IMG/VR virus record: IMGVR_UViG_3300045988_030125
Source: a virus
Direction: 5' to 3' (one strand)
DNA length: 51,397 bases
The translations under genes and the position numbers were made by a program. Below the pieces are notes generated by a model, which did no database searches, was not told the DNA's origin, and saw only the letters and a program-made list of their open reading frames with translations. Shown piece by piece: positions 97 through 51,354 of this stretch. Within the stretch, counting starts at the first letter, position 1; every line of letters begins with the position of its first letter.

Positions 97-225
97 GGGC
101 CTGTCGAACGTAACCGTAGGGGCCAGCTAACTCGTGTTAGCCAGGCTTTCGTGACCCGCCCCTGTCGAACGTACTAAGGGGGCTGTCGCACGCTAACCGA
201 GGCCCTGCCCTGTCGAACGTAACCT
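97..225 (+). repeat. Cluster of direct repeats with core CCTGTCGAACGTA (three exact cores plus one variant)
   Basis: CTGTCGAACGTA starts at 101, 162 and 210. The variant GCTGTCGCACGCTAACC lies at 182-197. A further copy of CTGTCGAAC starts at 51279. Confidence 0.85.
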
Positions 226-234
226 ACCCCGTGA

Positions 235-289
235 TGTGACGCAGAACACACCTTATCAAGTTGACAGCCACTTAGCGCCTAGCTAAGCT
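235..289 (+). promoter_or_regulatory. Promoter P1 with upstream CRP-like box
   Basis: TGTGA-cgcaga-ACACA lies at 235-250. TTGACA is at 261-266, followed by a 17-nt spacer and TAAGCT at 284-289. Confidence 0.6.
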
Positions 290-295
290 TGAGTT

Positions 296-573
296 ATCGG
301 CAAGGGAAACCCGGCAAGGACGCGAAAGCGACCGCCGAGACGGCCCGGGCGAGGACCTTAGTCCGAATGGTCTTTGTGAACTGAATTACACACAGGGGCG
401 AGGCTTGCACCTGCCGAAAAGTTGGCAACTTTTCCATCGCCTGTGTCGGCTAGGATGCGAACACGCTGAAACTTTACGTTCGGTCAGTAAAATAAGCGTG
501 CACACATGCCTAGGGCCGCTAGAATGACTTTGTACTGACAAAGTGGCGAGTTCAATTCTCGCACGGCTCACCA
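296..573 (+). ncRNA. Candidate structured non-coding RNA ending in a tRNA-like T-arm/acceptor/ACCA
   Basis: The region lies downstream of P1 and has no credible ORF. It contains hairpins GGGAAACCC (304-312) and CGCGAAAGCG (321-330), an 8-bp stem 416-423/427-434 and a long-range stem ACACAGG/CCTGTGT (about 389-395/440-446). It ends with T-arm GCGAG-TTCAATT-CTCGC (546-562), then ACGGCTC, A and CCA (563-573). Confidence 0.45.
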
Positions 574-591
574 AGATTCTGAACAACCAAA

Positions 592-647
592 TGTGACGCG
601 GTTCACACGCTGTCAGCTTGACACGGCCCCCAGGGGTCCGATAGACT
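592..647 (+). promoter_or_regulatory. Promoter P2 with perfect CRP-like box
   Basis: TGTGA-cgcggt-TCACA lies at 592-607. TTGACA is at 618-623, followed by an 18-nt spacer and TAGACT at 642-647. Confidence 0.65.
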
Positions 648-974: not shown

Positions 975-1247
975 TTGTGTACAACCCGAACTTGCCCCCT
1001 TATCCGCGGCCTCAAGGGCGACTTTGAGGTCATTATCGACACGGGCGAGGTGCTTAACGTGACCAGCAACCCCCGGCTTGCTTGCTACTTGGCGCGCTCG
1101 CTTGACCTGCCTATGCCCCGCGCTGACTGCCTTGTCGAGTTGGTTCACAGCGCCTGTCGTGGCAGCGTGCGTGTCGTCGAACTACTAGCACGGATGGACT
1201 GGCAAATTATTCAGCTTGACGCCGATACCTTGCCGTTCACGGTGTGA
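975..1247 (+). CDS. hypothetical protein (90 aa, TTG start)
   Basis: The ORF is in the track, with SD AAGGAAG at 966-972. Confidence 0.6.
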   Translation: MCTTRTCPLIRGLKGDFEVIIDTGEVLNVTSNPRLACYLARSLDLPMPRADCLVELVHSACRGSVRVVELLARMDWQIIQLDADTLPFTV

Positions 1248-1298
1248 TCCACATCACAACCTAACAAGTTGACAACTACCTAGCACCGTTGCTAGGCT
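1243..1298 (+). promoter_or_regulatory. Promoter P3 with perfect CRP-like box
   Basis: TGTGA-tccaca-TCACA lies at 1243-1258. TTGACA is at 1269-1274, followed by an 18-nt spacer and TAGGCT at 1293-1298. Confidence 0.65.
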
Positions 1299-2483: not shown

Positions 2484-2870
2484 ATGGGTATTCTTGACAA
2501 TATCAGCAGCGCCGCGTATGACATTATGGCGGGCCGTGTTGGCGATGGGTTCCTGCCTGTCGCTAAGAATTTCAACATCGCTGCGAATCACAACCACCCG
2601 ATTCGCAACAGCCGATTTGACGTTTATTCCTACACAACGCGCGTTGCAGTAGTGAACAAGAATGAGAATGGGGACTGGGACACTTTCGTACACCGTGATG
2701 CGTTCCATCATTCGACAACTACAAGCCGACACGTGCGCCAGTTCCTGTCGGCAATGGCTGGCCGTGTTGACTGGGACGCGCTTTACAAGGCGTGCAACAA
2801 AGCTTGTAAAGATGAAACTATTAACGGTAATGGTAACCCATTCGTCAATGTGAGCCAGTTCACGTACTAA
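2484..2870 (+). CDS. hypothetical protein (128 aa)
   Basis: The ORF is in the track, preceded by the leader CACAGAAAGACAAAG. Confidence 0.75.
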   Translation: MGILDNISSAAYDIMAGRVGDGFLPVAKNFNIAANHNHPIRNSRFDVYSYTTRVAVVNKNENGDWDTFVHRDAFHHSTTTSRHVRQFLSAMAGRVDWDALYKACNKACKDETINGNGNPFVNVSQFTY

Positions 2871-2944: not shown

Positions 2945-3124
2945 ATGCGAATCAACAAGGACACTATGACCGTTATCAAGGCCGCTACCGCCGCTAAGAT
3001 TACCTTCCGAAAGATGGGAGCCGACTACGGCGATAATCCGAGTGTGCTTGCCGCTATTGACGCGGTGGTTACTGCCCTGGATGGGCTGTCGGATGCAGTA
3101 GTCATGTCAGAAATTGAGGGCTGA
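2945..3124 (+). CDS. hypothetical protein (59 aa)
   Basis: I translated this by hand; it is below the track cutoff. The leader CAGAAAGCGAGAAC precedes the ATG. Confidence 0.65.
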   Translation: MRINKDTMTVIKAATAAKITFRKMGADYGDNPSVLAAIDAVVTALDGLSDAVVMSEIEG

Positions 3125-4603: not shown

Positions 4604-4984
4604 ATGTGGGAAGAATTGCTGAGCGTCATTACTGACCGTTATTACCTGCTAGAATCTATGCAGGAAAACGTGGCTGGTTACATTGATCCTGACAAGGGCT
4701 GGGACCTGACACGTGTTAACCCTTGGTTTACCGAGCATGGCTATGAGTTTGTGGGTCTGCTTGACCTGTTCTCTGAAAACGAGGCAAGCGGTGTCTACGT
4801 GAACGTGGATGGTTACGTATGGCGTTGTCGCACTAATGCCGCTGACAATAGCATCTATTGGTACTGGGAGTCCAATAACGAGGGCGTTACCTTGGATGAA
4901 CTGCGCTTCCTGCATGGGTACGTGCACCAATTCATCTGGGACCAAGACGAACAAACGTGTAACGTAGTTCACATGGCAGAATGA
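4604..4984 (+). CDS. hypothetical protein (126 aa)
   Basis: The ORF is in the track, with SD GGAGAG. Confidence 0.75.
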   Translation: MWEELLSVITDRYYLLESMQENVAGYIDPDKGWDLTRVNPWFTEHGYEFVGLLDLFSENEASGVYVNVDGYVWRCRTNAADNSIYWYWESNNEGVTLDELRFLHGYVHQFIWDQDEQTCNVVHMAE

Positions 4985-5041
4985 CCAACAACCTGATAGA
5001 CTAGACACAACAAACCAACCAAGCGAAAGCGAGAAACAAAA

Positions 5042-6031: not shown

Positions 6032-6132
6032 TGTTCGCGGTCGCCTACTATGCGCTATTCTTTATAGCTGCACTCATCCCTACGTCCATTTACTGCCACC
6101 ACAAAGAAAGTGAGAACAACAATGAAGACTGA
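6031..6132 (+). CDS. possible 33-aa hydrophobic peptide
   Basis: I translated this by hand. Its start overlaps the upstream stop as TAATG. It overlaps the next start by 11 nt. Confidence 0.3.
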   Translation: MFAVAYYALFFIAALIPTSIYCHHKESENNNED

Positions 6133-6457
6133 GGCCCTGGTTAGCAAGATCAACAAGCTCAACGCCGAGATTAGCGCACTGACCGAAGCGCGGGATGAGC
6201 TTAAGGCTCAGCTATGCGAACAGTTTAACCCCGGCGACAAGATCACCGTGGGAGCCACTAGGGTCACTTTCGCGGTGCGCAAGACTATCAACCCAGCAGC
6301 GGTCGAAAAACTTGCAGCGTTTAAGAAACTGCCCAAGGCCGTGCGTGAGTCAGTCTACGACAAGCCCAAGCTCAACACGCGCAAGCTTGCAGCATTGGAG
6401 CTTATCGATCTGGGACCTGCAACCACCGTGTCGGACGTGTACGCGACATTCCGATGA
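6122..6457 (+). CDS. hypothetical coiled-coil protein (111 aa)
   Basis: I moved the track ORF start to ATG 6122, which follows AGAAAGTGAGAAC. Confidence 0.75.
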   Translation: MKTEALVSKINKLNAEISALTEARDELKAQLCEQFNPGDKITVGATRVTFAVRKTINPAAVEKLAAFKKLPKAVRESVYDKPKLNTRKLAALELIDLGPATTVSDVYATFR

Positions 6458-16093: not shown

Positions 16094-18147
16094 AGATTCT
16101 AACTACTGACTGCGACGAGCTGCCTGTTCTTGCGCAGATTCTACTGAAGCGGGCATACGTGGTATCTGGCCTTCCAGAGGACACGCACGTAGAAATCACT
16201 GACGATGTGAACGATGTGGATATCAAGATCACCCTCGGCACTGTGAAAGGTTACAAGGGTGGTGCGTACAAGACGCTTTCACCTAAGCAGATTGTTACCA
16301 ATCCGCAGTCTGTTCTGTTCCTTGCTCAGGCGTTGCAGTATGGTTACCTTGGTCCTGTTGATCTTAATCTGGAACTCGGCAAGGACTGGGTTATCTGGGA
16401 GGGTGAGGACATCACCTTCAAGCCAGGCACGGTGATTGCACTCGACATCGAGTCCGCTGGTGACATCGACAACGACACGTTCGCGGCTGGGCGCATCCTG
16501 TCGATTGCCCTGTGGAATGGCAAGTTTGGTGTGGTTATCCCCGAGGAGCTTGCTGAGACCGACAAAGCAGCAGAGACCATTAAGAGGCTGTGCGACACCT
16601 GCACGGTTGTCTGCCACAACGGGACCTTCGATATGCCGTACCTGTCGAAGCGCCTGGGTATCAACGTGTATCACCATGAGGACACGCTGCTCATGCACTT
16701 CGTGCTCGACAACCTGGCCGGTGAGCATGGCCTGAAGCCTCTCGCTCGTCGCTGGTTGCGTGCAGAGGATTGGGACTCGGATGCAAAGTCTTACCTGAAG
16801 GGCGGGGCGTACTTCGAAAACATCCCCAAGGAAAAGCTCTATGAGTACAACTTGGCAGACGTGGTATGGACCTTCAAGCTGTACGAATACTTCCTTCCGA
16901 TGCTCAAGAACAGCAGAAAGTACGACTACTACCGCTACCGTATGCAGGTCACGAAGGTTCTCAACGATGTGCAGATGAACGGTGTTGCAGTGTCGCTCAA
17001 TGCTCTCGATGAACTGGAAGAGAAGTATAAGCGTCAGTGTGACGAGAACCTTGTTGTCTTGAGGCAGCACGCGGGTGAGGACTTCAACCCACAGTCTCCT
17101 AAGCAGATCAAGGACTACTTCAAGTCTAAGGGTGTGTCGTCCCCGTCGTTCGACTCCGACCACCTGAAGAAGCTGCGACGCGAAGGCAAGGAGACTGAGT
17201 TTATCGACGCTCTGCTTGCCTACCGCTACGCAGCTAAGGTGATTGGCTCATTCATTGCTAACGTGCGCCGTAAGGTCGGTGAGGATGGACGTATCCATCC
17301 GTACTACCTGCCTCACGGTGCTAAGACGGGTCGCTTGTCGGCCAAGGGGCCAGCGATTCAGACGATGGGACGCGACAGCGGTATCAAGCGTGCCCTTGTC
17401 GCTGCACCTGGTTGCAAGATCATCTCTTGCGACTACTCCCAGGCTGAGCTACGTACTGTCGCTGAGCTCGCGGACGACGAGGCTATGATTGCCGCGTTCC
17501 AGCCGGGTGCACCGGACTTTTTTGACGATCTGATGACAAAGATCTGGCCAGAAGAGTTCCCGACAATCGAAGCGTACGAGGCTTTCAAGCACGAACAGCC
17601 AAAGACCGCGAAGAACCGACGCGCACTGGTCAAGAGCGTGGTGTACGGTCTCAACTACAATAGAGGTGTACCAGCTATTGCGACAGCGCTTGAACAGCCT
17701 CTTGAGGCCGCACAGCATGTGGTCGATCAATACCTCGGCTCCTACCCGGGACTTCGAGACTGGCAGGCACGGGTTAAGCACAGTGTAGGACGTAAGGAAG
17801 AGGACCACGAACGTAAAACCAAGTTCGGCCTCACCTTCAATCCCCTTTTCGTGTCGGACAGCAACTACAATTCGACACAGAATGAAGCACTCGCCTTTGT
17901 TCCACAATCGACAGCCAATGACATCTGTCTGAACGCAGCAATCAAGATCAATGAACAAGTTGGTCAATACGGAGCTAAGCTGATTGGTCTTGTCCATGAC
18001 GCTACCTATGTCGAGTGCCCCGAAGAAACCATTGAAGAGTGCTCCAAGATGATGGAATACGAAATGGCTAAGGCGGCGACGATTGTGTTCAATCGTGTGC
18101 CTTTTGCTGCTGAAGCAGAGGTCGGTAACAACTGGGAAGAGGTGTAA
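16090..18147 (+). CDS. family-A DNA polymerase (Pol I-like, with 3'-5' exonuclease)
   Basis: Exonuclease motifs LDIES and HNGTFDMPYL are present. Polymerase motifs DYSQAELR, KSVVYGLNY and LVHDA are present. Confidence 0.93.
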   Translation: MKILTTDCDELPVLAQILLKRAYVVSGLPEDTHVEITDDVNDVDIKITLGTVKGYKGGAYKTLSPKQIVTNPQSVLFLAQALQYGYLGPVDLNLELGKDWVIWEGEDITFKPGTVIALDIESAGDIDNDTFAAGRILSIALWNGKFGVVIPEELAETDKAAETIKRLCDTCTVVCHNGTFDMPYLSKRLGINVYHHEDTLLMHFVLDNLAGEHGLKPLARRWLRAEDWDSDAKSYLKGGAYFENIPKEKLYEYNLADVVWTFKLYEYFLPMLKNSRKYDYYRYRMQVTKVLNDVQMNGVAVSLNALDELEEKYKRQCDENLVVLRQHAGEDFNPQSPKQIKDYFKSKGVSSPSFDSDHLKKLRREGKETEFIDALLAYRYAAKVIGSFIANVRRKVGEDGRIHPYYLPHGAKTGRLSAKGPAIQTMGRDSGIKRALVAAPGCKIISCDYSQAELRTVAELADDEAMIAAFQPGAPDFFDDLMTKIWPEEFPTIEAYEAFKHEQPKTAKNRRALVKSVVYGLNYNRGVPAIATALEQPLEAAQHVVDQYLGSYPGLRDWQARVKHSVGRKEEDHERKTKFGLTFNPLFVSDSNYNSTQNEALAFVPQSTANDICLNAAIKINEQVGQYGAKLIGLVHDATYVECPEETIEECSKMMEYEMAKAATIVFNRVPFAAEAEVGNNWEEV

Positions 18148-18440
18148 TGAACGCATCCGATTATGAAGAAGCAGCTTGCCTTAATGCTCCTGTCGAGCTG
18201 TTCTACGATGTGAAGCTCTACGCAGACGTTGCACGAGTATTCTGCGAGAACTGCCCCATCAAAGAACAGTGTCTTCAAGATTGCCTGCAAGCCGAAGAAA
18301 CACCTGTTGACGGTAAGAAGTTCCGTTCAGGTGTCTTCGGTGGGCTTTCACCGAGCGCAAGGAATGTTTACGCTGGCACAGCATACGATGTACTAAGTGA
18401 TGATTGGGAGGAAGAATATGCAAACAGTAATAGCAATTGA
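18147..18440 (+). CDS. whiB: WhiB-family Fe-S transcription factor
   Basis: The Cys pattern is C-x21-C-x2-C-x5-C (AACL...FCENCPIKEQC), followed by GVFGGL. Confidence 0.8.
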   Translation: MNASDYEEAACLNAPVELFYDVKLYADVARVFCENCPIKEQCLQDCLQAEETPVDGKKFRSGVFGGLSPSARNVYAGTAYDVLSDDWEEEYANSNSN

Positions 18441-39017: not shown

Positions 39018-40043
39018 TTACTTAGATTCTACCAGCTTCACGATTCCGTTACTGTCTTGTTCAACGACGATCCTGCCGTGCAACAACTTGCCATCTTCAC
39101 CGAAGATCGAGCAAGCACCATCGAGGCGGGTCTGGCACAGGCCGACAGCCATAGCACCCGTCTCGGTCAGGTAGTAGTCATCGCCCTTGTACGACAGCCA
39201 GCCAGTACGCATAGCACCGTTTTCCTCAAGGTAGTACCACTTTCCCTTATCCAACTGCCAGCCGGTGAGCATCTGTCCCTTGTCGTTCAAGAGGAACCAA
39301 TGTTCGCCGTCCTTGATCCAGCCGGTCTCCATCTCACCATAGCGAGTGTCGTGGACATTGTGCAGGTAGTACCACTGACCATCAATGTGCTGCCAGCCGA
39401 CCTGCAACCAGCCACGGTCATTGGCGTAGTACCACTTCTCATTAACAGGGAACCAGCCAGTCTCCCACGAGCCGTCAGCAAGGCGGTACCACCAGCCGCC
39501 GTCCTGTGACACCCAGCCTTCCTTGTTGGACAGGTCAGCATCAAGGTTGTCGTAGTACTCCTGTGCCTTCTCGATGTACTCGCCAGCGTACTTATCACGC
39601 AAGGAAGCCGGGCAGGCAGTCGAGTAGAAGTCCGAGTGGGGGAACACATTGGAGCGCCACTCAGGGCGACCAAGACCATACGCTCGACAGATAGCAGCGG
39701 TCAGGTGGGCGCCCGCGTCGATGGTCTCATCCCCGACATCCCACCCGCCCTCAGCACCAGAGCAGTTTGCGTGCTCGATGCCGATACTCTTCTTGTTCAC
39801 ACCAGGGCAGTGCCATGCTGTGTCGGAATCATGTACGAATTGGCAAATGTTGCCGTCGATGTCAACGTTGTAATGGGCAGAAGTCCCATTATTAGTGAAG
39901 GCCCCATACACACCAGCATGTGTCATAGCCTCACCTGCGTTGTGGTGGATGACAACACGATCAAGGGCGAAACCACCTCGCCCTTCATCGAAGTTGTCGA
40001 TCCAGATGTTTTGATCGGCAATCAGATCAGTCCAACTAATCAT
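39018..40043 (-). CDS. endolysin: N-acetylmuramoyl-L-alanine amidase with C-terminal GW/WYY cell-wall-binding repeats
   Basis: The N-terminus resembles amidase_2/PGRP (VVIHHNAG, AHYNVD, SIGIEH). The C-terminus has at least six repeats of the type GW..(D/N)G.WYY. Confidence 0.9.
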   Translation of the reverse strand: MISWTDLIADQNIWIDNFDEGRGGFALDRVVIHHNAGEAMTHAGVYGAFTNNGTSAHYNVDIDGNICQFVHDSDTAWHCPGVNKKSIGIEHANCSGAEGGWDVGDETIDAGAHLTAAICRAYGLGRPEWRSNVFPHSDFYSTACPASLRDKYAGEYIEKAQEYYDNLDADLSNKEGWVSQDGGWWYRLADGSWETGWFPVNEKWYYANDRGWLQVGWQHIDGQWYYLHNVHDTRYGEMETGWIKDGEHWFLLNDKGQMLTGWQLDKGKWYYLEENGAMRTGWLSYKGDDYYLTETGAMAVGLCQTRLDGACSIFGEDGKLLHGRIVVEQDSNGIVKLVESK

Positions 40044-40321
40044 CTCTTAATCTCCCAAGGACCCATATACGACTGCTCAGCATTGATGACTTCGGTAAGG
40101 GCTTGAATACCCTCGTCTGTCACGAATACTTGCCTATGATGATTCTTCCGCTTCCCGCCGTTGGTAACGACAGTGCGCACTCCGAGAAGGCCCTTAGCCT
40201 TCTCAGTAGGCATCTTAGACTCATAACTGCGCTTCAGGTACCCGGCACGACACAGGCACCGAATGACCTTGATGGGGCCGATCTCAAATGTTCGCGCGAA
40301 CTCCAACAGACTTGGTTCCAT
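40040..40321 (-). CDS. hypothetical protein (93 aa), possibly a KilAC-like DNA-binding domain
   Basis: The ORF is in the track. Its start overlaps the upstream stop as TGATG. The domain assignment is a weak impression only. Confidence 0.6.
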   Translation of the reverse strand: MEPSLLEFARTFEIGPIKVIRCLCRAGYLKRSYESKMPTEKAKGLLGVRTVVTNGGKRKNHHRQVFVTDEGIQALTEVINAEQSYMGPWEIKR

Positions 40322-40746
40322 CACGCACCGTCCACTTCTGTGAAGTAGTCGGCGAATGGGTTATCGCCTGGCTCTGAGAACTCCATGTCGATAGTTGCAG
40401 CCTCCGCATCGACAGGACGCAAAATGTCCTTCGGCTGTCGAATCGACTTGAGGACCAAGGTCCAGTCAACTGGCATATAGTCTCCCAACATGATCATGTC
40501 CTTGATCGTCAGGCTCCCGTTCACCAACTTAGTATGATAATAGCGTGCGGAAGGCCCACCGATAAGTTCCCCATCCTTCATGATCGACAGGCCTGCATCC
40601 TTAAACTGCTTAATCACAAGTTCTCGAATGAAGGCAACACGTGTTTCGACATCCTGTGGGTACTTGCCGCCCATCCGGGTGGCACGTGCCTTAGCCATGC
40701 GGGCGCGCGCTTTTTCGAGCTTAATAGGGTCTGTAACCTTAGTCAT
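40321..40746 (-). CDS. hypothetical protein (141 aa)
   Basis: The ORF is in the track. Confidence 0.75.
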   Translation of the reverse strand: MTKVTDPIKLEKARARMAKARATRMGGKYPQDVETRVAFIRELVIKQFKDAGLSIMKDGELIGGPSARYYHTKLVNGSLTIKDMIMLGDYMPVDWTLVLKSIRQPKDILRPVDAEAATIDMEFSEPGDNPFADYFTEVDGA

Positions 40747-41433: not shown

Positions 41434-41467
41434 TAGAGGGCCAGCACCAAGCAGCACTGGCCCTCTA
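41434..41467 (-). terminator. Terminator hairpin after the LPXTG gene
   Basis: TAGAGGGCCAG pairs with CTGGCCCTCTA, 11 bp. Confidence 0.65.
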
Positions 41468-41475
41468 CTTATGTG

Positions 41476-42822
41476 TCAGCGAGTCTTGCTGTATCGACCG
41501 ACACACCAGGCCACAGTCACGGTGGCTACACCGAACAGCAGCGACAGAATCCCGATCACAGCGGCCTCAGAGGCAGCACCAGTCTTGGCCAGCTTGGCCT
41601 TCGGGGCCTCAATCGTTGGCGCAGGCTTCGGGGCCGGGGCCGGTGCAGGCTTAGTCGGTGCAGGGATAGGCTCGATCTTGCAGGGCGTCCGGTCCTTGTC
41701 TCGGTCAGGGTGGATCGTGCAAGGGGTCTGGGTCGGCGTGGGCGTCGGCTCATCCGAAGGCGCAGGCGTCGGCGTCGGCTCGGACGGCTTGGAAGGCTCA
41801 GGGGCCGGGGTCGAGGTCGGCTCAGTAGAAGGGGCCGGTGCAGGCGTAGACGGCTCAGGTTCCGGCGTAGGGGCAGGAGTCGGCTTCGGGTCCTCAGACG
41901 GCGTAGGTTCCGGCGCGGGCGTCGGCTTCACAGAGCCGTCACCGTCCGTGCCTCCGTTAGAACGGACGGTCGCAGTAGCTTCCAGTTTGAGACCATTCAC
42001 CTCAGCGTGGTTGGTAACTGAGGTCTGACCCTCGGGCACCTTCATCTGCTCGGGTGGGTACGTGGCGCAAGTCTTAGACCCTTCAGGCGCGGTGAACTTG
42101 ATCGTGTTCGCATCCACCTGATCGGCGGTAACAATCTCGGTCGTGGCCGGGTCCCAGGTTGGACCCTTAGCGCACTTCACGTACGTGCTCAGCCGAGTGT
42201 CGAAGTCCTTAACGGTGTACTCGACACCGCCCTCGGCAATAAACTTGATGCCCCATCCAACGGTTCCGTTGGAATTGGTCCAACCAAACTTGATGTTGGA
42301 AGGCTCTGCGTACTCAAAGTGGGCCGGACTATCACAGTCGCTCGTGCAAGACCCTGTGCCTTCAGCATCGCCCCAGATGAGCTTCTTGACAACCTCACCA
42401 TTGAGGGTGATCGTACCCTCGTTAGTGCCGACAGCGGCGTCCTGAAGCCTGGCTCGCGCCCACCACGAACCGCTGACGTTCTCCTTATCCTTATAAGACT
42501 CAGGCACCTCGGTCACCTTGCAGGTCAGCGTCGCCTGATCGGCGTTGCACTCACCGACGACAGTGCCGTCATTAAGAGCGAATGGAAAACTAGCGTTCCA
42601 CTTGAAGCCACCATCCTTAGACGCGACGGTGAAAGACTGTCCGACAGCCAGTCGCTCAACGGTCCAGATTCCACCCACATTGACCTCGCTAGAGGTCTGC
42701 CGAGACGAGGACGTTGCCTTGGTGACCTCGGCCTTGATCTCAGGGGTGGTGTCGGCGGCATAGGCTGCTGCTGGGGCAATCATCAGTAGTGCGACACCGG
42801 CTGTCGCAAGAAAACGCTTCAT
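41476..42822 (-). CDS. secreted, sortase-anchored (LAKTG) cell-wall surface protein with a Pro/Thr-rich stalk
   Basis: The signal peptide is MKRFLATAGVALLMIAPAAAYA. The PT-rich linker spans about 41640-41940. The LAKTG motif lies at 41578-41592, followed by a hydrophobic helix and an RYSKTR tail. An SD GAAAGGA precedes ATG 42822. Confidence 0.88.
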   Translation of the reverse strand: MKRFLATAGVALLMIAPAAAYAADTTPEIKAEVTKATSSSRQTSSEVNVGGIWTVERLAVGQSFTVASKDGGFKWNASFPFALNDGTVVGECNADQATLTCKVTEVPESYKDKENVSGSWWARARLQDAAVGTNEGTITLNGEVVKKLIWGDAEGTGSCTSDCDSPAHFEYAEPSNIKFGWTNSNGTVGWGIKFIAEGGVEYTVKDFDTRLSTYVKCAKGPTWDPATTEIVTADQVDANTIKFTAPEGSKTCATYPPEQMKVPEGQTSVTNHAEVNGLKLEATATVRSNGGTDGDGSVKPTPAPEPTPSEDPKPTPAPTPEPEPSTPAPAPSTEPTSTPAPEPSKPSEPTPTPAPSDEPTPTPTQTPCTIHPDRDKDRTPCKIEPIPAPTKPAPAPAPKPAPTIEAPKAKLAKTGAASEAAVIGILSLLFGVATVTVAWCVGRYSKTR

Positions 42823-42863: not shown

Positions 42864-42919
42864 AGTGTAGCTGACAGACCGAGTAGTTTACGATAGATAA
42901 TCACGTGACACTGCTCACA
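42864..42919 (-). promoter_or_regulatory. Promoter of the LPXTG gene: CRP-like box, weak -35, good -10
   Basis: Read on the minus strand, TGTGA-gcagtg-TCACG lies at 42919-42904. A 7-nt gap follows, then CGTAAA (42892-42887), a 17-nt spacer and TACACT (42869-42864). Confidence 0.5.
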
Positions 42920-42924
42920 TAGTA

Positions 42925-42961
42925 TCATCCCCCTACCGAGGGTTAGTCGATAGGGGGATGA
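42925..42961 (-). terminator. 11-bp hairpin after gene 43063-43359
   Basis: TCATCCCCCTA pairs with TAGGGGGATGA. Confidence 0.6.
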
Positions 42962-43062
42962 GTCCTCACGCATTTTGAACCTGCGTGCAAGGCCGGTACT
43001 TGGAAGGCGAACCCTCCCGTACCTAATCCCGAGATCAGAGGCGCGCTGTCTCAGGCCGCTTA

Positions 43063-43359
43063 TCACAGATGGTCGAACGGACGATGCTCCAAAATCTCTT
43101 CCATCTTATGACCTGGAATGGTGTAGACACCAGGCGAGACGACACCGTAGGTCATCGGGGTAACCATCGTCACAGGAGCCTTCTCGACAATGCCCTGGTC
43201 AAGCAGAGCGATAAGCTCAGGGTCCTGCGTGGTGATCGTGTAGACACCCGTACGAGCCTCCTGGGTGATGGTGGTCTTCATCTCGTCATTCTTGATGAGA
43301 GACGAGTAACTGCCCTCGAAAGCCTTGCCCAGCTTGACTGCGAGATCGACAATGCTCAT
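43063..43359 (-). CDS. hypothetical protein (98 aa)
   Basis: The ORF is in the track, with SD AAGGAGG. Confidence 0.75.
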   Translation of the reverse strand: MSIVDLAVKLGKAFEGSYSSLIKNDEMKTTITQEARTGVYTITTQDPELIALLDQGIVEKAPVTMVTPMTYGVVSPGVYTIPGHKMEEILEHRPFDHL

Positions 43360-43394
43360 TGTTCCTCCTTGGTTGTCGTTACTAGGCTATTGTA

Positions 43395-43712
43395 TCAGCC
43401 CCAGATGACCTCAGCGTTCTTATCGTTGGTACGCAGATTGTATGCTAGTTCTGCATCATTGAACTTATCACCCCAAGATGATACCCAGTATTCTTCGGAA
43501 CCTTCGATACCATCCGAGACACGCAAGAAGAATGACGAGTTAGTCTGAATCACACAAGGGGCTTCACACTCATTAAGATAACAGATGACACCATTCTTGT
43601 CCCTAAAGTAATTACGACTCTCGTGCTCTTCTTCAAGTTCGACACCCAGCTTGGGTGCGATCTTCTTCAGCAGCTTATCAGCGAGTTCATCAAACTGCTC
43701 ATCAGTTAACAT
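43395..43712 (-). CDS. hypothetical protein (105 aa), paralog of 44115-44447
   Basis: The ORF is in the track, with SD GGGAG. It shares R(D)K(N/D)GV...(L).E...CVI(Q/D)TN with 44115-44447. Confidence 0.75.
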   Translation of the reverse strand: MLTDEQFDELADKLLKKIAPKLGVELEEEHESRNYFRDKNGVICYLNECEAPCVIQTNSSFFLRVSDGIEGSEEYWVSSWGDKFNDAELAYNLRTNDKNAEVIWG

Positions 43713-44099
43713 TGTTAACTCCCTTCAGCGCCCAATCGAGACTTTTATTGAGTTCTTCCATGGTGGAGCACCACTGGGCATCCTTAAGAACAGCAAACAG
43801 AAACTCCTTCCAGAAGCGGTCACCTGGAAGACGAGCGAAATCCTCGTCTTCTTCAATAATCTCTGTCGGCTCCTTGAACTCAGCGTCATGCAACCAAGTT
43901 GTGAACATTGGAAGGTTGATGTCGATGGTAGTGAGGTGCCCCAGTCAGACCACCAGCCCTTAATAGTGTAGCTTTCACCGTAACTGGAAGTAAAGGTATA
44001 CGCAGGGTGGTCAAGCATACCTGTGTACATACACATATCACATGAACCATCTGTATCTTCATAGGTATTCGTATCAAAATTGGTAAGGCGCAGCTTCAT
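43702..44099 (-). CDS. hypothetical protein needing a +1 frame change at a G4 run (43939-43942)
   Basis: ATG 44099 follows GAAAGGA. The protein-like frame switches from track ORF 43725-44099 to track ORF 43702-43908. The second ORF has no RBS. Confidence 0.55.
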
Positions 44100-44114
44100 T
44101 TTAGTTTCCTTTCG

Positions 44115-44447
44115 TTAGAACTTATAAACAGTGATCTCGACATCAGGGTCATCAGCATGATCACGAATGAGTGCCGCAAGATTCCTTGGGATATAGTAAT
44201 TACCCCCAAGAGAGACGAAGTAGCGTACGAATGAAGTTTGTGAGGTTACTGGCATATAGAGGTTAACATTAGTGTCGATCACGCACTTCTCTTTAACCAG
44301 TTCAGTAAGATCATGAACGACACCATCCTTGTCCCTAATCTGTGTGTCGCTCAACTCTTCTACTGGGCTGGCATCCAGCACGTCTACCAGCTTTGCAACT
44401 GTGCGTCGTACCTCTTCCATCCAGGCATCAAATTCAGCGTTGGTCAT
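44115..44447 (-). CDS. hypothetical protein (110 aa), paralog of 43395-43712
   Basis: The ORF is in the track, with a strong SD AAAGGAGAAAC. Confidence 0.8.
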   Translation of the reverse strand: MTNAEFDAWMEEVRRTVAKLVDVLDASPVEELSDTQIRDKDGVVHDLTELVKEKCVIDTNVNLYMPVTSQTSFVRYFVSLGGNYYIPRNLAALIRDHADDPDVEITVYKF

Positions 44448-44469
44448 TTTGTTTCTCCTTTCTTTCGCG

Positions 44470-44540
44470 CTCCCAGACTAGGACTCGAACCTAGTCCGAC
44501 AGGGCCAAAACCTGCCGTGCTGCCATTACACTATCTGGGA
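44470..44540 (-). tRNA. tRNA-Gln (anticodon TTG)
   Basis: I folded the cloverleaf by hand. The acceptor is TCCCAGA/TCTGGGA, the anticodon loop TTTTGGC and the T-arm CTAGG-TTCGAGT-CCTAG. It is 71 nt long with no encoded CCA. Confidence 0.88.
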
Positions 44541-44611
44541 TAAACCCAGGCAGTCCCGGAGGACGCCTGGGAACTAAGTGCTGCATATGCAACAGTAGGC
44601 AATACTGCCCG

Positions 44612-44684
44612 TCGGAATGGTGAGACTCGAACTCACGGCCCCCTGGTCCCAAACCAGGTGCGCTACCTACTGCGCTACATTCCG
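44612..44684 (-). tRNA. tRNA-Pro (anticodon TGG)
   Basis: I folded the cloverleaf by hand. The acceptor is CGGAATG/CATTCCG, the anticodon loop TTTGGGA and the T-arm GTGAG-TTCGAGT-CTCAC. It is 73 nt long. Confidence 0.9.
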
Positions 44685-44846
44685 TTGGAAGGGGATGCTA
44701 TTCGGACGACAGAAACACACACTAAAAAGAGTCGTCCCTAGGGTGCTACCCCGCACGTGATCCCCCGATCACGACGGCTGGTCCATCCTCTTGGCCAAAG
44801 AGGCAGGCGACAAGGCCTAATCATCCAGCATTGTCCAGCCGCTTGG

Positions 44847-44931
44847 TGGTCCCCTTGGTGAGAGTCGAACTCACACTCCTTTCGGAACTCGATTTTGAGT
44901 CGAGCGCGTCTGCCTGTTCCGCCACAAGGGG
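44847..44931 (-). tRNA. tRNA-Leu (anticodon CAA), type II with a long variable arm and encoded CCA
   Basis: I folded the cloverleaf by hand. The acceptor is CCCCTTG/CAAGGGG, the anticodon loop CTCAAAA, the variable arm TTCCGAAAGGAGT and the T-arm GTGAG-TTCGACT-CTCAC. It ends in ACCA. Confidence 0.88.
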
Positions 44932-45000
44932 TAGTGCCTCCCAATGTTCACCATCCCTTACTTGTAGGGTTTTGAGAGGCTATTCAGTTGTGATGTGTTC

Positions 45001-45056
45001 AGTATAGGCCCGCTCTTTCTGAACTGTCAACCCTATACCACGTGACGTGTGTCACT
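45001..45056 (-). promoter_or_regulatory. Promoter of the tRNA operon with CRP-like box
   Basis: Read on the minus strand, AGTGA-cacacg-TCACG lies at 45056-45041. TTGACA is at 45030-45025, followed by an 18-nt spacer and TATACT at 45006-45001. Confidence 0.65.
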
Positions 45057-45390
45057 CTGAAGTGTTGATGAGCGTCGCGATGTACGGGTCTTCAGAAAGC
45101 AAGATGCTGACGATATCGATGCTTTGAAGCACAGCCTTACTATCACCGATGCCAGTACGGACCCAGCACTTACTGCGAATCTTCAGAAATGCTCCGTGTC
45201 GCTCTGTGATGATAACACTACCAGTGCTGGTGATCGACTCCAACGCTTGTGCTGTTTCGATTGCTACAGTCCGCCCATAACCGTTATAGTCAACACTCCA
45301 AACACTGAGGTCATCAATACCTGCGTTGCGTAGCTTGAGGTTGTCGTCAATCAGCTTATCGTAGAATTCTTGAAACGTATCTTTGCTCAT
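45052..45390 (-). CDS. hypothetical protein (112 aa), paralog of 45387-45740
   Basis: The ORF is in the track. Its start overlaps the upstream stop as ATGA. The similarity was judged by eye. Confidence 0.75.
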   Translation of the reverse strand: MSKDTFQEFYDKLIDDNLKLRNAGIDDLSVWSVDYNGYGRTVAIETAQALESITSTGSVIITERHGAFLKIRSKCWVRTGIGDSKAVLQSIDIVSILLSEDPYIATLINTSE

Positions 45391-45740
45391 GACTGCGCCC
45401 CAGGATCGACAATCGTAGCGACATGGCCACCATTATCACTCTCGGTAATGATGAACTTGAGAATGTCAAGATCATGAACCACACGATCCTCACCTGTAGT
45501 AGGTTCAGTCCAGTTCTGGTCGTTGATCTTCAGCCAGATACCGTGATTCTTAGTGATGATCATACAGCCCTTCGTAGTGATAACACCGAAGTCACGGCAG
45601 TCCAGGACTGTAGTCACTTCCCGCTTACCAAAACCCATAACGCACTGCACGCTAAGACCATGGATATCCCATGTATGCATCCTGATGTGGTTCTCTCGCG
45701 TCTGGTTATAAAACTCGATGAACTCCTTGTTGTCGCTCAT
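45387..45740 (-). CDS. hypothetical protein (117 aa), paralog of 45052-45390
   Basis: The ORF is in the track, with SD GGAAGGAG. Confidence 0.75.
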   Translation of the reverse strand: MSDNKEFIEFYNQTRENHIRMHTWDIHGLSVQCVMGFGKREVTTVLDCRDFGVITTKGCMIITKNHGIWLKINDQNWTEPTTGEDRVVHDLDILKFIITESDNGGHVATIVDPGAQS

Positions 45741-46018
45741 TCTTTATCTCCTTCCGTTTCAAGAATGATTGCTTGCTTATTACTGTTGTTGATAAGATAC
45801 GCAAGCTCATAACTGTACAGGCCAATCAGCACAACACTGTCGAACACACGCCAGAGCTGGCTACCCTTCTTAAAGGTGATCCCGTTCCACTTCAGCTTGC
45901 GCACTGTATCAAGGTCTACATTGCCAAGGCCAGGAACGTCAACGACAGGGTAATCACTTTCCTGCGCATTGTCGCAGGCTTCGTAAAGCAGATTATGGAT
46001 TTCGCTCACACTTAGCAT
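45737..46018 (-). CDS. hypothetical protein (93 aa)
   Basis: The ORF is in the track. Its start overlaps the upstream stop as TAATG. Confidence 0.75.
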   Translation of the reverse strand: MLSVSEIHNLLYEACDNAQESDYPVVDVPGLGNVDLDTVRKLKWNGITFKKGSQLWRVFDSVVLIGLYSYELAYLINNSNKQAIILETEGDKE

Positions 46019-46155
46019 TAGTTTTCCTCCAATGAAAGTAGTGCTTCAGCATAGCCAGCTACCTTAAACCAGCTCATGTTAGACGGGTTGCTTTTATACT
46101 CGCTAGACGCAATGTCAAAAATCTCTTGGAGCAGAGAATGTCCAAATGTCGCCAT
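46018..46155 (-). CDS. hypothetical 45-aa protein
   Basis: I translated this by hand. It has a strong SD GAAAGGAGAAAC and is the first gene after promoter 46187-46242. Confidence 0.6.
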   Translation of the reverse strand: MATFGHSLLQEIFDIASSEYKSNPSNMSWFKVAGYAEALLSLEEN

Positions 46156-46186
46156 TGTTTCTCCTTTCTTCGGGGCTGATGCATTT

Positions 46187-46242
46187 ATACTAATGCTCTC
46201 TACCGTCGCCTGTCAACAACTACCCACGTGACGTGTACCACA
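46187..46242 (-). promoter_or_regulatory. Promoter with CRP-like box
   Basis: Read on the minus strand, TGTGG-tacacg-TCACG lies at 46242-46227. TTGACA is at 46216-46211, followed by an 18-nt spacer and TAGTAT at 46192-46187. Confidence 0.6.
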
Positions 46243-50278: not shown

Positions 50279-50333
50279 AGCATAGAAGGGTAGATGGTTA
50301 AAGTCAACAAGATAATTTGTGATCTGACCCACT
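50279..50333 (-). promoter_or_regulatory. Right-arm promoter with a half-conserved CRP-like box
   Basis: Read on the minus strand, AGTGG-gtcaga-TCACA lies at 50333-50318. TTGACT is at 50307-50302, followed by a 17-nt spacer and TATGCT at 50284-50279. Confidence 0.5.
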
Positions 50334-50377
50334 AAGGGGTATGACCTATAGCCAGGGTATACGCAAAGGGGTATGAC
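50334..50377. repeat. Direct repeats AAGGGGTATGAC x2 with a related CAGGGTATAC between them
   Basis: Copies lie at 50334-50345 and 50366-50377, with the related copy at 50352-50361. They sit between two tandem minus-strand promoters. Confidence 0.75.
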
Positions 50378-50427: not shown

Positions 50428-50564
50428 ATCGAGGCCCCAAAATCCGATGTGTCAAGTGATTCCCCCTCCCAGCCCCCTCCCTAGCCCCGGACCAAACCCA
50501 AACGCATATCCAAACCAATTTTGTGACCCGGGCCACATAATCCCATCCCAACACCCACCTATAA

Positions 50565-50770: not shown

Positions 50771-50993
50771 AAGTAAATTACATACCTAGCAATGTAATTA
50801 CCCGCTTAATCTGTATGTAATACCCAAAGATAAGAATAATGTAAAGTACATATAAACAAGAAGGTTTCTATGATAATGTAATATAGGGGTATAGTATGTA
50901 TATATGTATTATATGTATGTAAATGTAAAAGCGTCAGATCATAGACGACAGTAATATACCCCCGGGGGGTATCCTTATTGAGAATGATTCTCA
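50771..50993. repeat. AT-rich island with ATGTAA(T/A) iterons and two palindromes
   Basis: ATGTAA(T/A) occurs at 50792, 50815, 50839, 50876, 50917 and 50923, with three further ATGTAT copies. ATACCCCCGGGGGGTAT lies at 50956-50972. GAGAATgATTCTC lies at 50981-50993. Confidence 0.8.
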
Positions 50994-51298
50994 TTATCAG
51001 TTCTCACCCTCCCTCAATTGTCCTGTCATTTACCCTATGCTATCTCTAAGCCCCTAACACCCCCTCAGAGCTACCCACATACCACTAACCCCCTAAAAGT
51101 CTCTCTACGCCCCTTCCAGACCCCTCCACGGCCATGCCAGCACCAACCACCTCCCTCCCAACCCACAACTCCCTCGCACACACACGCGCGTATAGCACAC
51201 CAAACCCAACCATGCAACTTAAACCACATCTTGAGATGTCAAGACAACACCAACCGTCTTGGCACCTAATTAGTGCCCCTGTCGAACACCCTCCAAAG

Positions 51299-51354
51299 TG
51301 TTACCCATTTCACACCATAAAAACCTTGACTTTCTCTCTCGATACTGATAAGCT
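51299..51354 (+). promoter_or_regulatory. Promoter P0 with CRP-like box; its -10 falls inside the 55-bp terminal identity
   Basis: TGTTA-cccatt-TCACA lies at 51299-51314. TTGACT is at 51326-51331, followed by a 17-nt spacer and TAAGCT at 51349-51354 (equivalent to positions 7-12). Confidence 0.5.

Follow-up and report, generated by a model that had tools for sequence, protein, structure and literature searches.

The box promoters and their genes

The window analysed here is the whole 51,397-base IMG/VR record IMGVR_UViG_3300045988_030125, a complete phage genome of ~51.3 kb with a G+C content of 52.5%, whose two ends share a repeat of 55 nucleotides (nt) and which was therefore assembled as a circle. 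The subject of the study is a 16-bp dyad, tGTGa-N6-TCAC[a/g], referred to below as the box, which precedes promoters on both arms of the genome, the left arm being read on the plus strand (1-18.9 kb) and the right arm on the minus strand (from ~50.3 kb down to 19 kb). In the general layout the box is followed by a 10-nt linker, a -35 element, a spacer of 17-18 nt and a -10 element of the form TAnnnT. An earlier note on this DNA had placed the box before three right-arm transcription units between positions 42,864 and 46,242, with a half-conserved copy before the first right-arm promoter. The right-arm promoters and the features belonging to them are as follows.

50318-50333, minus strand: box AGTGGGTCAGATCACA of P50, the first right-arm promoter; 10-nt linker, -35 TTGACT (50302-50307), 17-nt spacer, -10 TATGCT (50279-50284)
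46227-46242, minus strand: box TGTGGTACACGTCACG of P46; 10-nt linker, -35 TTGACA (46211-46216), 18-nt spacer, -10 TAGTAT (46187-46192)
45041-45056, minus strand: box AGTGACACACGTCACG of P45; 10-nt linker, -35 TTGACA (45025-45030), 18-nt spacer, -10 TATACT (45001-45006)
44469-44931, minus strand: genes for transfer RNAs (tRNAs), namely tRNA-Leu(CAA), tRNA-Pro(TGG) and tRNA-Gln(TTG), transcribed from P45 together with four small genes
42904-42919, minus strand: box TGTGAGCAGTGTCACG of P42, the LPXTG promoter; 10-nt linker, weak -35 TCGTAA (42888-42893), 18-nt spacer, -10 TACACT (42864-42869)
41476-42822, minus strand: secreted surface protein gene, with signal peptide, Pro/Thr-rich stalk, LAKTG sorting signal and membrane anchor

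The boxes starting at 46242, 45056 and 42919 and the half-conserved one at 50333-50318 were all confirmed on the minus strand. P46 drives a four-gene unit (46155-45052), and the P45 box overlaps the stop codon of the open reading frame (ORF) at 45052-45390. At both P46 and P45 the box starts 26 nt before TTGACA, as previously described, which corresponds to the 10-nt linker after the 16-bp box. In case of P42, which drives the LAKTG-anchored surface protein gene, the -35 element had been read as CGTAAA at 27 nt, and this is off by one position. Since the relatives of the phage have TTGTAA, TTGTGG or TTGTAT at the homologous place, the -35 is TCGTAA, 26 nt from the start of the box. The P50 box is kept in the relatives L277, L280 and L281.

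The box is also present in the following left-arm promoters, and as orphan copies.

51299-51314, plus strand: box TGTTACCCATTTCACA of a promoter crossing the assembly junction; 11-nt linker, -35 TTGACT (51326-51331), -10 TAAGCT (51349-51354)
235-250, plus strand: box TGTGACGCAGAACACA of the early promoter P235; 10-nt linker, -35 at 261-266, -10 TAAGCT (284-289)
592-607, plus strand: box TGTGACGCGGTTCACA of the early promoter P592, kept in L277; 10-nt linker, -35 at 618-623, -10 TAGACT (642-647)
1243-1258, plus strand: box TGTGATCCACATCACA of the early promoter P1243, kept in L278 and L279; 10-nt linker, -35 at 1269-1274, -10 TAGGCT (1293-1298)
2849-2864, plus strand: box TGTGAGCCAGTTCACG of the early promoter P2849, kept in L277 and L279; 10-nt linker, -35 at 2875-2880, -10 TACTAT (2898-2903)
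4958-4973, plus strand: box TGTAACGTAGTTCACA of a tenth promoter; no linker, -35-like TGGCAG (4974-4979), 17-nt spacer, TAGACT (4997-5002)
375-390, plus strand: orphan box TGTGAACTGAATTACA, conserved in L277, with no -35 at either distance
50522-50537, palindromic: orphan box TGTGACCCGGGCCACA in the non-coding DNA between the arms, conserved in L281, with no -35 at either distance

The tenth promoter represents a second register. Its box centre lies at ~-43.5, one helical turn closer than the boxes centred at ~-53.5, and the arrangement recurs in the relatives L276 and L280, where the box abuts a weak TGGCAG or TTGCAG 17 nt before TAGACT or TACACT.

The box as a cis-element

The association of the box with the -35 element is far from random. 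A box with at most two mismatches, followed after a 10-nt gap by TTGAC[A/T], occurs at seven sites of the genome, whereas 200 dinucleotide-preserving shuffles gave a mean of 0.04 and a maximum of 1. When gaps of 0-40 nt were scanned, only two sites were found outside gap 10, one each at gaps 11 and 24. Conversely, eight of the ten strong sigma-70-like promoters in the genome, defined as matches to TTGAC[A/T]-N16-21-TAnnnT, carry the box, the exceptions being 13727, which lies inside a hairpin, and 18452, which is antisense within a coding sequence. Among the boxes with no more than one mismatch, 11 of 12 sit in regulatory DNA.

Comparison across ~90 related IMG/VR contigs has shown the same picture. 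In the orthologues of P46 (26 loci), P45 (38) and P42 (38) the GTG...CAC bases are kept, while the N6 spacer, the 10-nt linker and the upstream flank drift, and the left-arm promoters and P50 follow this pattern in the seven relative loci that cover them. The box stands at gap 10 in 38 of the 90 distinct TTGACA promoters of the relatives, and at other gaps essentially never. Motif positions 2-4 (GTG) and 13-15 (CAC) are retained in 95-98 of 98 distinct family sites, nearly all mismatches falling at positions 1, 5, 12 and 16; this distribution suggests that purifying selection acts on the half-sites only. The box is thus almost certainly a real shared cis-element. The earlier proposal that nine promoters on both strands answer to one regulator is borne out as to the common box, the constant distance between box and -35 and the number of promoters, and these are backed by the ~90 relatives; the identity of the binder, the direction of its effect and its polymerase contacts are what we infer below.

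Two simpler readings of the box sequence were rejected. A terminator hairpin does not fit, as the stems are only 5 bp long, the N6 spacer is non-complementary and no T-run follows. A string containing CACGTG (ACACGTCACGTGG) is common to the boxes at 46242 and 45056; it is not retained by the relatives, and GTCACGTG gives 3 matches against 2.75 expected, i.e. the chance rate, so that it is a coincidence of this isolate rather than a true motif.

Other elements lie next to these promoters. Directly upstream of the P50 box, AAGGGGTATGAC occurs twice (50334-50377, plus-strand coordinates) and is kept in L277; it may be the site of another factor. Just upstream of P46 (46350-46254, minus strand) there is a promoter-like TTGGCA-18-TACACT with a TG extension, followed after ~30 nt by a hairpin rich in G+C with a T-run behind it (46293-46254), and this arrangement could give rise to a ~60-nt transcript.

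The surface protein gene and its weak promoter

The surface protein gene is flanked by hairpins, at 42920-43062 upstream and at 41436-41465 downstream, and is conserved across the phage family. With its own promoter P42 in front and the hairpin 41436-41465 behind, it has the make-up of a moron-like autonomous unit. Its conservation throughout the family, on the other hand, makes it part of the family core and not a sporadic gene, and every homologue recovered is on a phage contig.

P42 had also been described as activator-dependent, with a poor -35 and a good -10. Apart from the misplaced -35 register, the available evidence fits this description: the -35 is weak, the box is near consensus, and the combination is conserved, a near-perfect box always being paired in the relatives with a poor -35 (TTGTAA, TTGTGG, TTGTAT or TCGTAA). 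In many relatives a GH16 gene has been inserted just upstream of the P42 box; the box and the promoter therefore move as one module.

A non-coding element of ~140 nt (42920-43062, minus strand) lies just upstream of the P42 box. It is predicted to form four hairpins (z = -4.2), and its 3' ~70 nt are 94-100% conserved in relatives, above the adjoining promoter. In relatives the GH16 gene starts 15 nt after this element. No match to it was found in Rfam.

The same layout beyond the phage family

An exact scan of IMG/VR for TGTGA-N6-TCACA-N10-TTGACA returned at least 120 matches, almost all of them followed by a good -10, and among the matches listed several contigs carry 2-4 copies. In a second scan the gap was left free between 0 and 30 nt and a -10 was required; in the resulting unbiased sample of 120 stretches, ~44 had gap 10 and every other gap accounted for 10 or fewer. 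Minor peaks at gaps 9, 19-22 and 29-30 indicate helical phasing.

Clustering by sequence divided the gap-10 promoters into at least 61 unrelated groups. Within the few kb fetched around each locus, a WhiB-like gene was present at 34 of 120 gap-10 loci (among the matches listed), whereas for loci with other gaps the figure was 3 of 76. When the ORFs of the window were compared by tblastn with the unrelated gap-10 loci, homologues were found only for WhiB (10 loci) and one other ORF. Since the gap-10 phages share no protein of the window but WhiB, a conserved host factor is indicated.

The layout is also seen on bacterial chromosomes. In five genomes of Actinomycetes and Acidimicrobiia (L210, L211, L214, L232 and L263) a perfect TGTGACATATGTCACA-10-TTGACA lies upstream of a 3D-domain gene, which codes for a cell-wall-hydrolase-like protein and has a leader of ~184 nt. 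These five loci make it plausible that host factors use the box geometry, and they may themselves lie in prophages. In Armatimonadota contigs (L225, L231, L251 and L258) cold-shock-protein genes carry box-10-TTGACA; their -10 is extended and their leader is long and conserved. The leaders of the chromosomal look-alike promoters had no matches in Rfam. The matches in Acutalibacteraceae are a real terminator that contains the motif by chance, and single exact matches elsewhere must therefore be taken with care.

The binder of the box

In the mechanism that we consider most likely, the box would be the binding site of a dimeric protein, built into almost every sigma-A-type promoter of the phage. 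A cyclic AMP (cAMP)-receptor protein of the host, of Crp/GlxR type and already in the cell when the DNA enters, would bind tGTGa-N6-TCAC[a/g]; from ~53.5 bp upstream of the start the dimer would contact and recruit RNA polymerase through the alpha C-terminal domain and/or sigma region 4. Where the -35 and -10 elements are of consensus type, the dimer would add strength and tie early transcription to the cAMP/energy state of the host, whereas at the LPXTG promoter, with its poor -35 in all relatives, the contact between dimer and polymerase would be required. In our judgement the chances that a Crp/GlxR-type host dimer binds at ~-53.5 and recruits RNA polymerase are evenly balanced.

The sequence of the box agrees with that of a CRP/GlxR site. 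In M. tuberculosis CRP, positions 2, 3, 14 and 15 form the common core and 4G/13C are the CRPMt-specific discriminators against Cmr (PMC5758884), and G2, T3, G4, C13, A14 and C15 are the bases kept in 95-98 of the 98 family sites. GlxR, which is close in sequence to Rv3676, the Crp of M. tuberculosis (PMC7999487, PMC10187061), recognises TGTGA-N6-TCACA (PMC7999487). The distances are in agreement as well. A crp mutant of M. tuberculosis loses expression of genes whose sites lie at -44.5, -54.5, -57.5 and -59.5 (PMC4117774, Table 2), and the phage registers of ~-43.5 and ~-53.5 match the geometry of Crp activation in that species. The phage boxes thus resemble the sites of Rv3676 and C. glutamicum GlxR in the 16-bp dyad TGTGA-N6-TCACA with its G2 T3 G4/C13 A14 C15 core, in the association of sites upstream of the -35 with activation, and in the host phylum. 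They differ from them in being viral and in sitting on nearly all promoters at one spacing, whereas in the host regulons the distances are scattered. No phage promoter is among the known Crp/GlxR targets, the CRP review PMC10187061 does not contain the word 'phage', and a literature search for CRP-type boxes locked to phage promoters found nothing relevant.

As the boxes belong to the promoters that fire first, any activating factor must be in the cell already. As to candidates from the phage itself, Pfam detected no helix-turn-helix (HTH) or CRP-like protein among its ~60 ORFs, and the Pfam and PHROGs scans of these ORFs recognised only WhiB and a KilAC-like domain. Because the first-firing promoters carry the box and unrelated WhiB phages share the layout with no common candidate protein, the simplest explanation is a conserved factor that the host already contains.

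Several observations weigh against a host Crp/GlxR activator. In E. coli, class I sites of CAP are centred at -61.5 (or at -72.5 and further in phase) and class II sites at -41.5. The phage promoters fall in neither class, their centres being at -53.5/-54.5 for gap 10 and at -43.5/-44.5 for gap 0; the dyad, the dimer on one face contacting RNA polymerase and the helical periodicity of positions are shared, and most of the phage promoters differ from typical CAP-dependent ones in having a consensus -35. Further, eight of the nine box promoters are near consensus in both -35 and -10, which makes an activator dispensable, and such promoters fit a repressor or a timing switch at least as well. Arthrobacter phage Amigo, the nearest cultured relative by protein (35-41% identity), does not have the box/-35 architecture. 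Among the gap-10 contigs there are some of low G+C content without WhiB, and the full pattern occurs 64 times in bacterial genomes across many phyla, including Clostridia, Chloroflexi and Saccharibacteria, where a rough uniform-composition estimate gives ~9 expected matches; hence the motif alone identifies no single protein. The conservation counts are drawn from ~10 orthologous promoter groups and so are not independent events. Finally, since most early proteins are ORFans without a detectable family, a binder encoded by the phage retains some probability.

The strongest rival, which we regard as unlikely and yet deserving attention, is indeed a phage-encoded dimeric DNA-binding protein, an ORFan early product. 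After the first minutes such a protein would turn off or readjust the strong early promoters while activating the LPXTG promoter with its weak -35, in the manner of p4 of phi29, a phage-encoded protein that represses strong promoters and activates a weak one from an upstream site. Repression or timing would be sensible at box promoters that already have consensus strength, and one type of site is found on strong promoters and on a weak one. The ~60 ORFs of no recognisable family offer room for such a protein, several early proteins, such as those at 1920-2183, 2484-2870, 2945-3124 and 6110-6457, are conserved wherever a relative has retained the boxes, and the strict register, which implies contact with RNA polymerase, could be produced by a phage protein too. 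On the other hand, no HTH, winged-HTH or zinc-finger protein was detected among the ~60 ORFs, and the conserved early proteins are mostly acidic. Moreover, the at least 61 unrelated promoter clusters with identical box and spacing have only WhiB in common with the window, and at the actinobacterial chromosomal promoters of the same layout no phage protein is evident.

The phi29 p4 system is similar in that one upstream-bound regulator serves several phage promoters and the outcome depends on how strong the -35 is; it differs in that p4 is phage-encoded, recognises another sequence and binds further upstream, and no p4-like protein was detected here. The late promoters of P2 (Ogr) and P4 (Delta) have a dyad TGT-N12-ACA near -55 and no -35, and are activated through the alpha subunit by a phage Cys4 zinc-finger protein. 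The position of that dyad is very similar to that of the phage boxes. The dyad found here is TGT-N10-ACA, however, the -35 is of consensus type at eight of nine promoters, and no Cys4 zinc-finger protein (CxxC...CxxC) occurs in the early regions of the phage.

Another host regulator with a similar dyad, i.e. a second CRP/FNR paralogue such as Cmr, or Rex, is improbable. TGTGA-type dyads are recognised by many proteins of the CRP/FNR family and by Rex, and the genome matches span Clostridia, Chloroflexi, Saccharibacteria and others. The Rex operator is TTGTGAA-N4-TTCACAA; the family sites have A after TGTGA in only 3 of 98 cases and T before TCAC in 5 of 98, and with these wrong flanking bases of the half-sites Rex was rejected. 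Cmr prefers 4C/13G (PMC5758884), whereas at least 95 of the 98 family sites have 4G/13C, and it was ruled out as the binder on this preference.

It is least probable of all, and to our mind hardly credible, that the boxes are not primarily regulatory and act as a structural or UP-like extension read by RNA polymerase or as a decoy array titrating Crp during replication: the 12 high-quality boxes per genome, including the orphans at 375-390 and 50522-50537, multiplied by the phage copy number could soak up a global regulator, but a decoy would need neither the strict 10-bp register nor the helical phasing, a perfect dyad containing G+C is unlike UP elements, and a terminator hairpin is excluded by the shortness of the stems and the lack of complementarity in the N6 spacer.

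Returning to the Crp-family dimer, a wider proposition may be put forward tentatively, as a possibility which we think rather less probable than its failure. Box-10-TTGACA may represent a widespread, unrecognised class of actinophage promoters, also present on some actinobacterial chromosomes, at which a Crp-family dimer would activate from ~-53.5, a position without function in the E. coli scheme. A possible reason would be that in Actinobacteria a WhiB-like protein, of host or phage, takes up the room beside sigma region 4 and could link the dimer to the polymerase. Phages of many lineages would then have converged on tying their first transcription to the cAMP status of the host.

Phage, host and other features of the genome

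In the left arm the small early genes are followed by replication genes (SNF2 helicase, dCMP deaminase, AAA_24 protein, DUF669 and DNA polymerase A), and the arm terminates with the gene of the WhiB-like protein (18147-18440, plus strand), the sole recognisable transcription factor of the genome. In the right arm the order is small early genes, the P46/P45/P42 units, dUTPase, the lysin with Amidase_2 and choline-binding repeats, and then terminase and structural genes. No integrase was found in the genome and the phage is therefore probably lytic. A DNA-level search of INPHARED gave no relative, and by protein the nearest cultured phages are the Amigo-like phages of Arthrobacter, with 41% identity in the large terminase and 35% in the polymerase. 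At least 80 contigs of ~50 kb in IMG/VR are close relatives, many of them from human samples.

The phage WhiB, the LAKTG sorting signal, which we take to be of sortase-E type, and the Arthrobacter phages as closest cultured relatives together indicate an actinobacterial host. The evidence points to an oral actinobacterium; from the G+C content, the oral origin and the kinship with phages of Micrococcaceae, Rothia would be our guess.

The lysis cassette (39018-40043, minus strand) with its neighbours consists of the Amidase_2 lysin with choline-binding repeats and then a holin, and lies upstream of the terminase genes; a KilAC-like protein of 94 amino acids (40040-40324) precedes the lysin gene. 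The non-coding DNA between the arms contains a very A+T-rich block with repeated ATGTAA/TGTAAT motifs (50780-50960), which could serve as an origin or in packaging. In the non-coding DNA that separates the first two left-arm promoters, CCCTGTCGAACGTA occurs four times (51279-51288, 101-110, 162-171 and 210-219, plus strand), and CTGTCGAACR has 8 copies in the window as against 0.27 expected; the CCCTGTCGAACGTA repeats could be the sites of a second regulator, or a replication or packaging element. Downstream of P235, at ~540-575 on the plus strand, there is a tRNA-like 3' end, GGCGAGTTCAATTCTCGCACGGCTCACCA, which corresponds to a T-arm and acceptor with CCA, and no full tRNA was called there by ARAGORN or Rfam.

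Significance of the findings

What is new in this study is that a well-known operator is present on viral promoters at a fixed register that is not familiar, and that this arrangement is widespread. Box-10-TTGACA provides a simple signature for early promoters in uncultured actinophages, and the architecture offers strong, tunable promoter parts for Actinobacteria. If the proposed activation is true, these promoters would allow a geometry of activation (-53.5/-43.5) unlike the textbook classes of E. coli to be studied in a compact natural model, and many freshwater and soil actinophages would share a dependence on cAMP. If host Crp/GlxR drives the promoters, this family of human oral phages, which is very abundant and counts more than 100 contigs of ~50 kb, would depend for its infection on the cAMP/energy state of the host; a conserved sortase-anchored surface protein would then stand under the same signal, which would bear on the surface change of infected cells.

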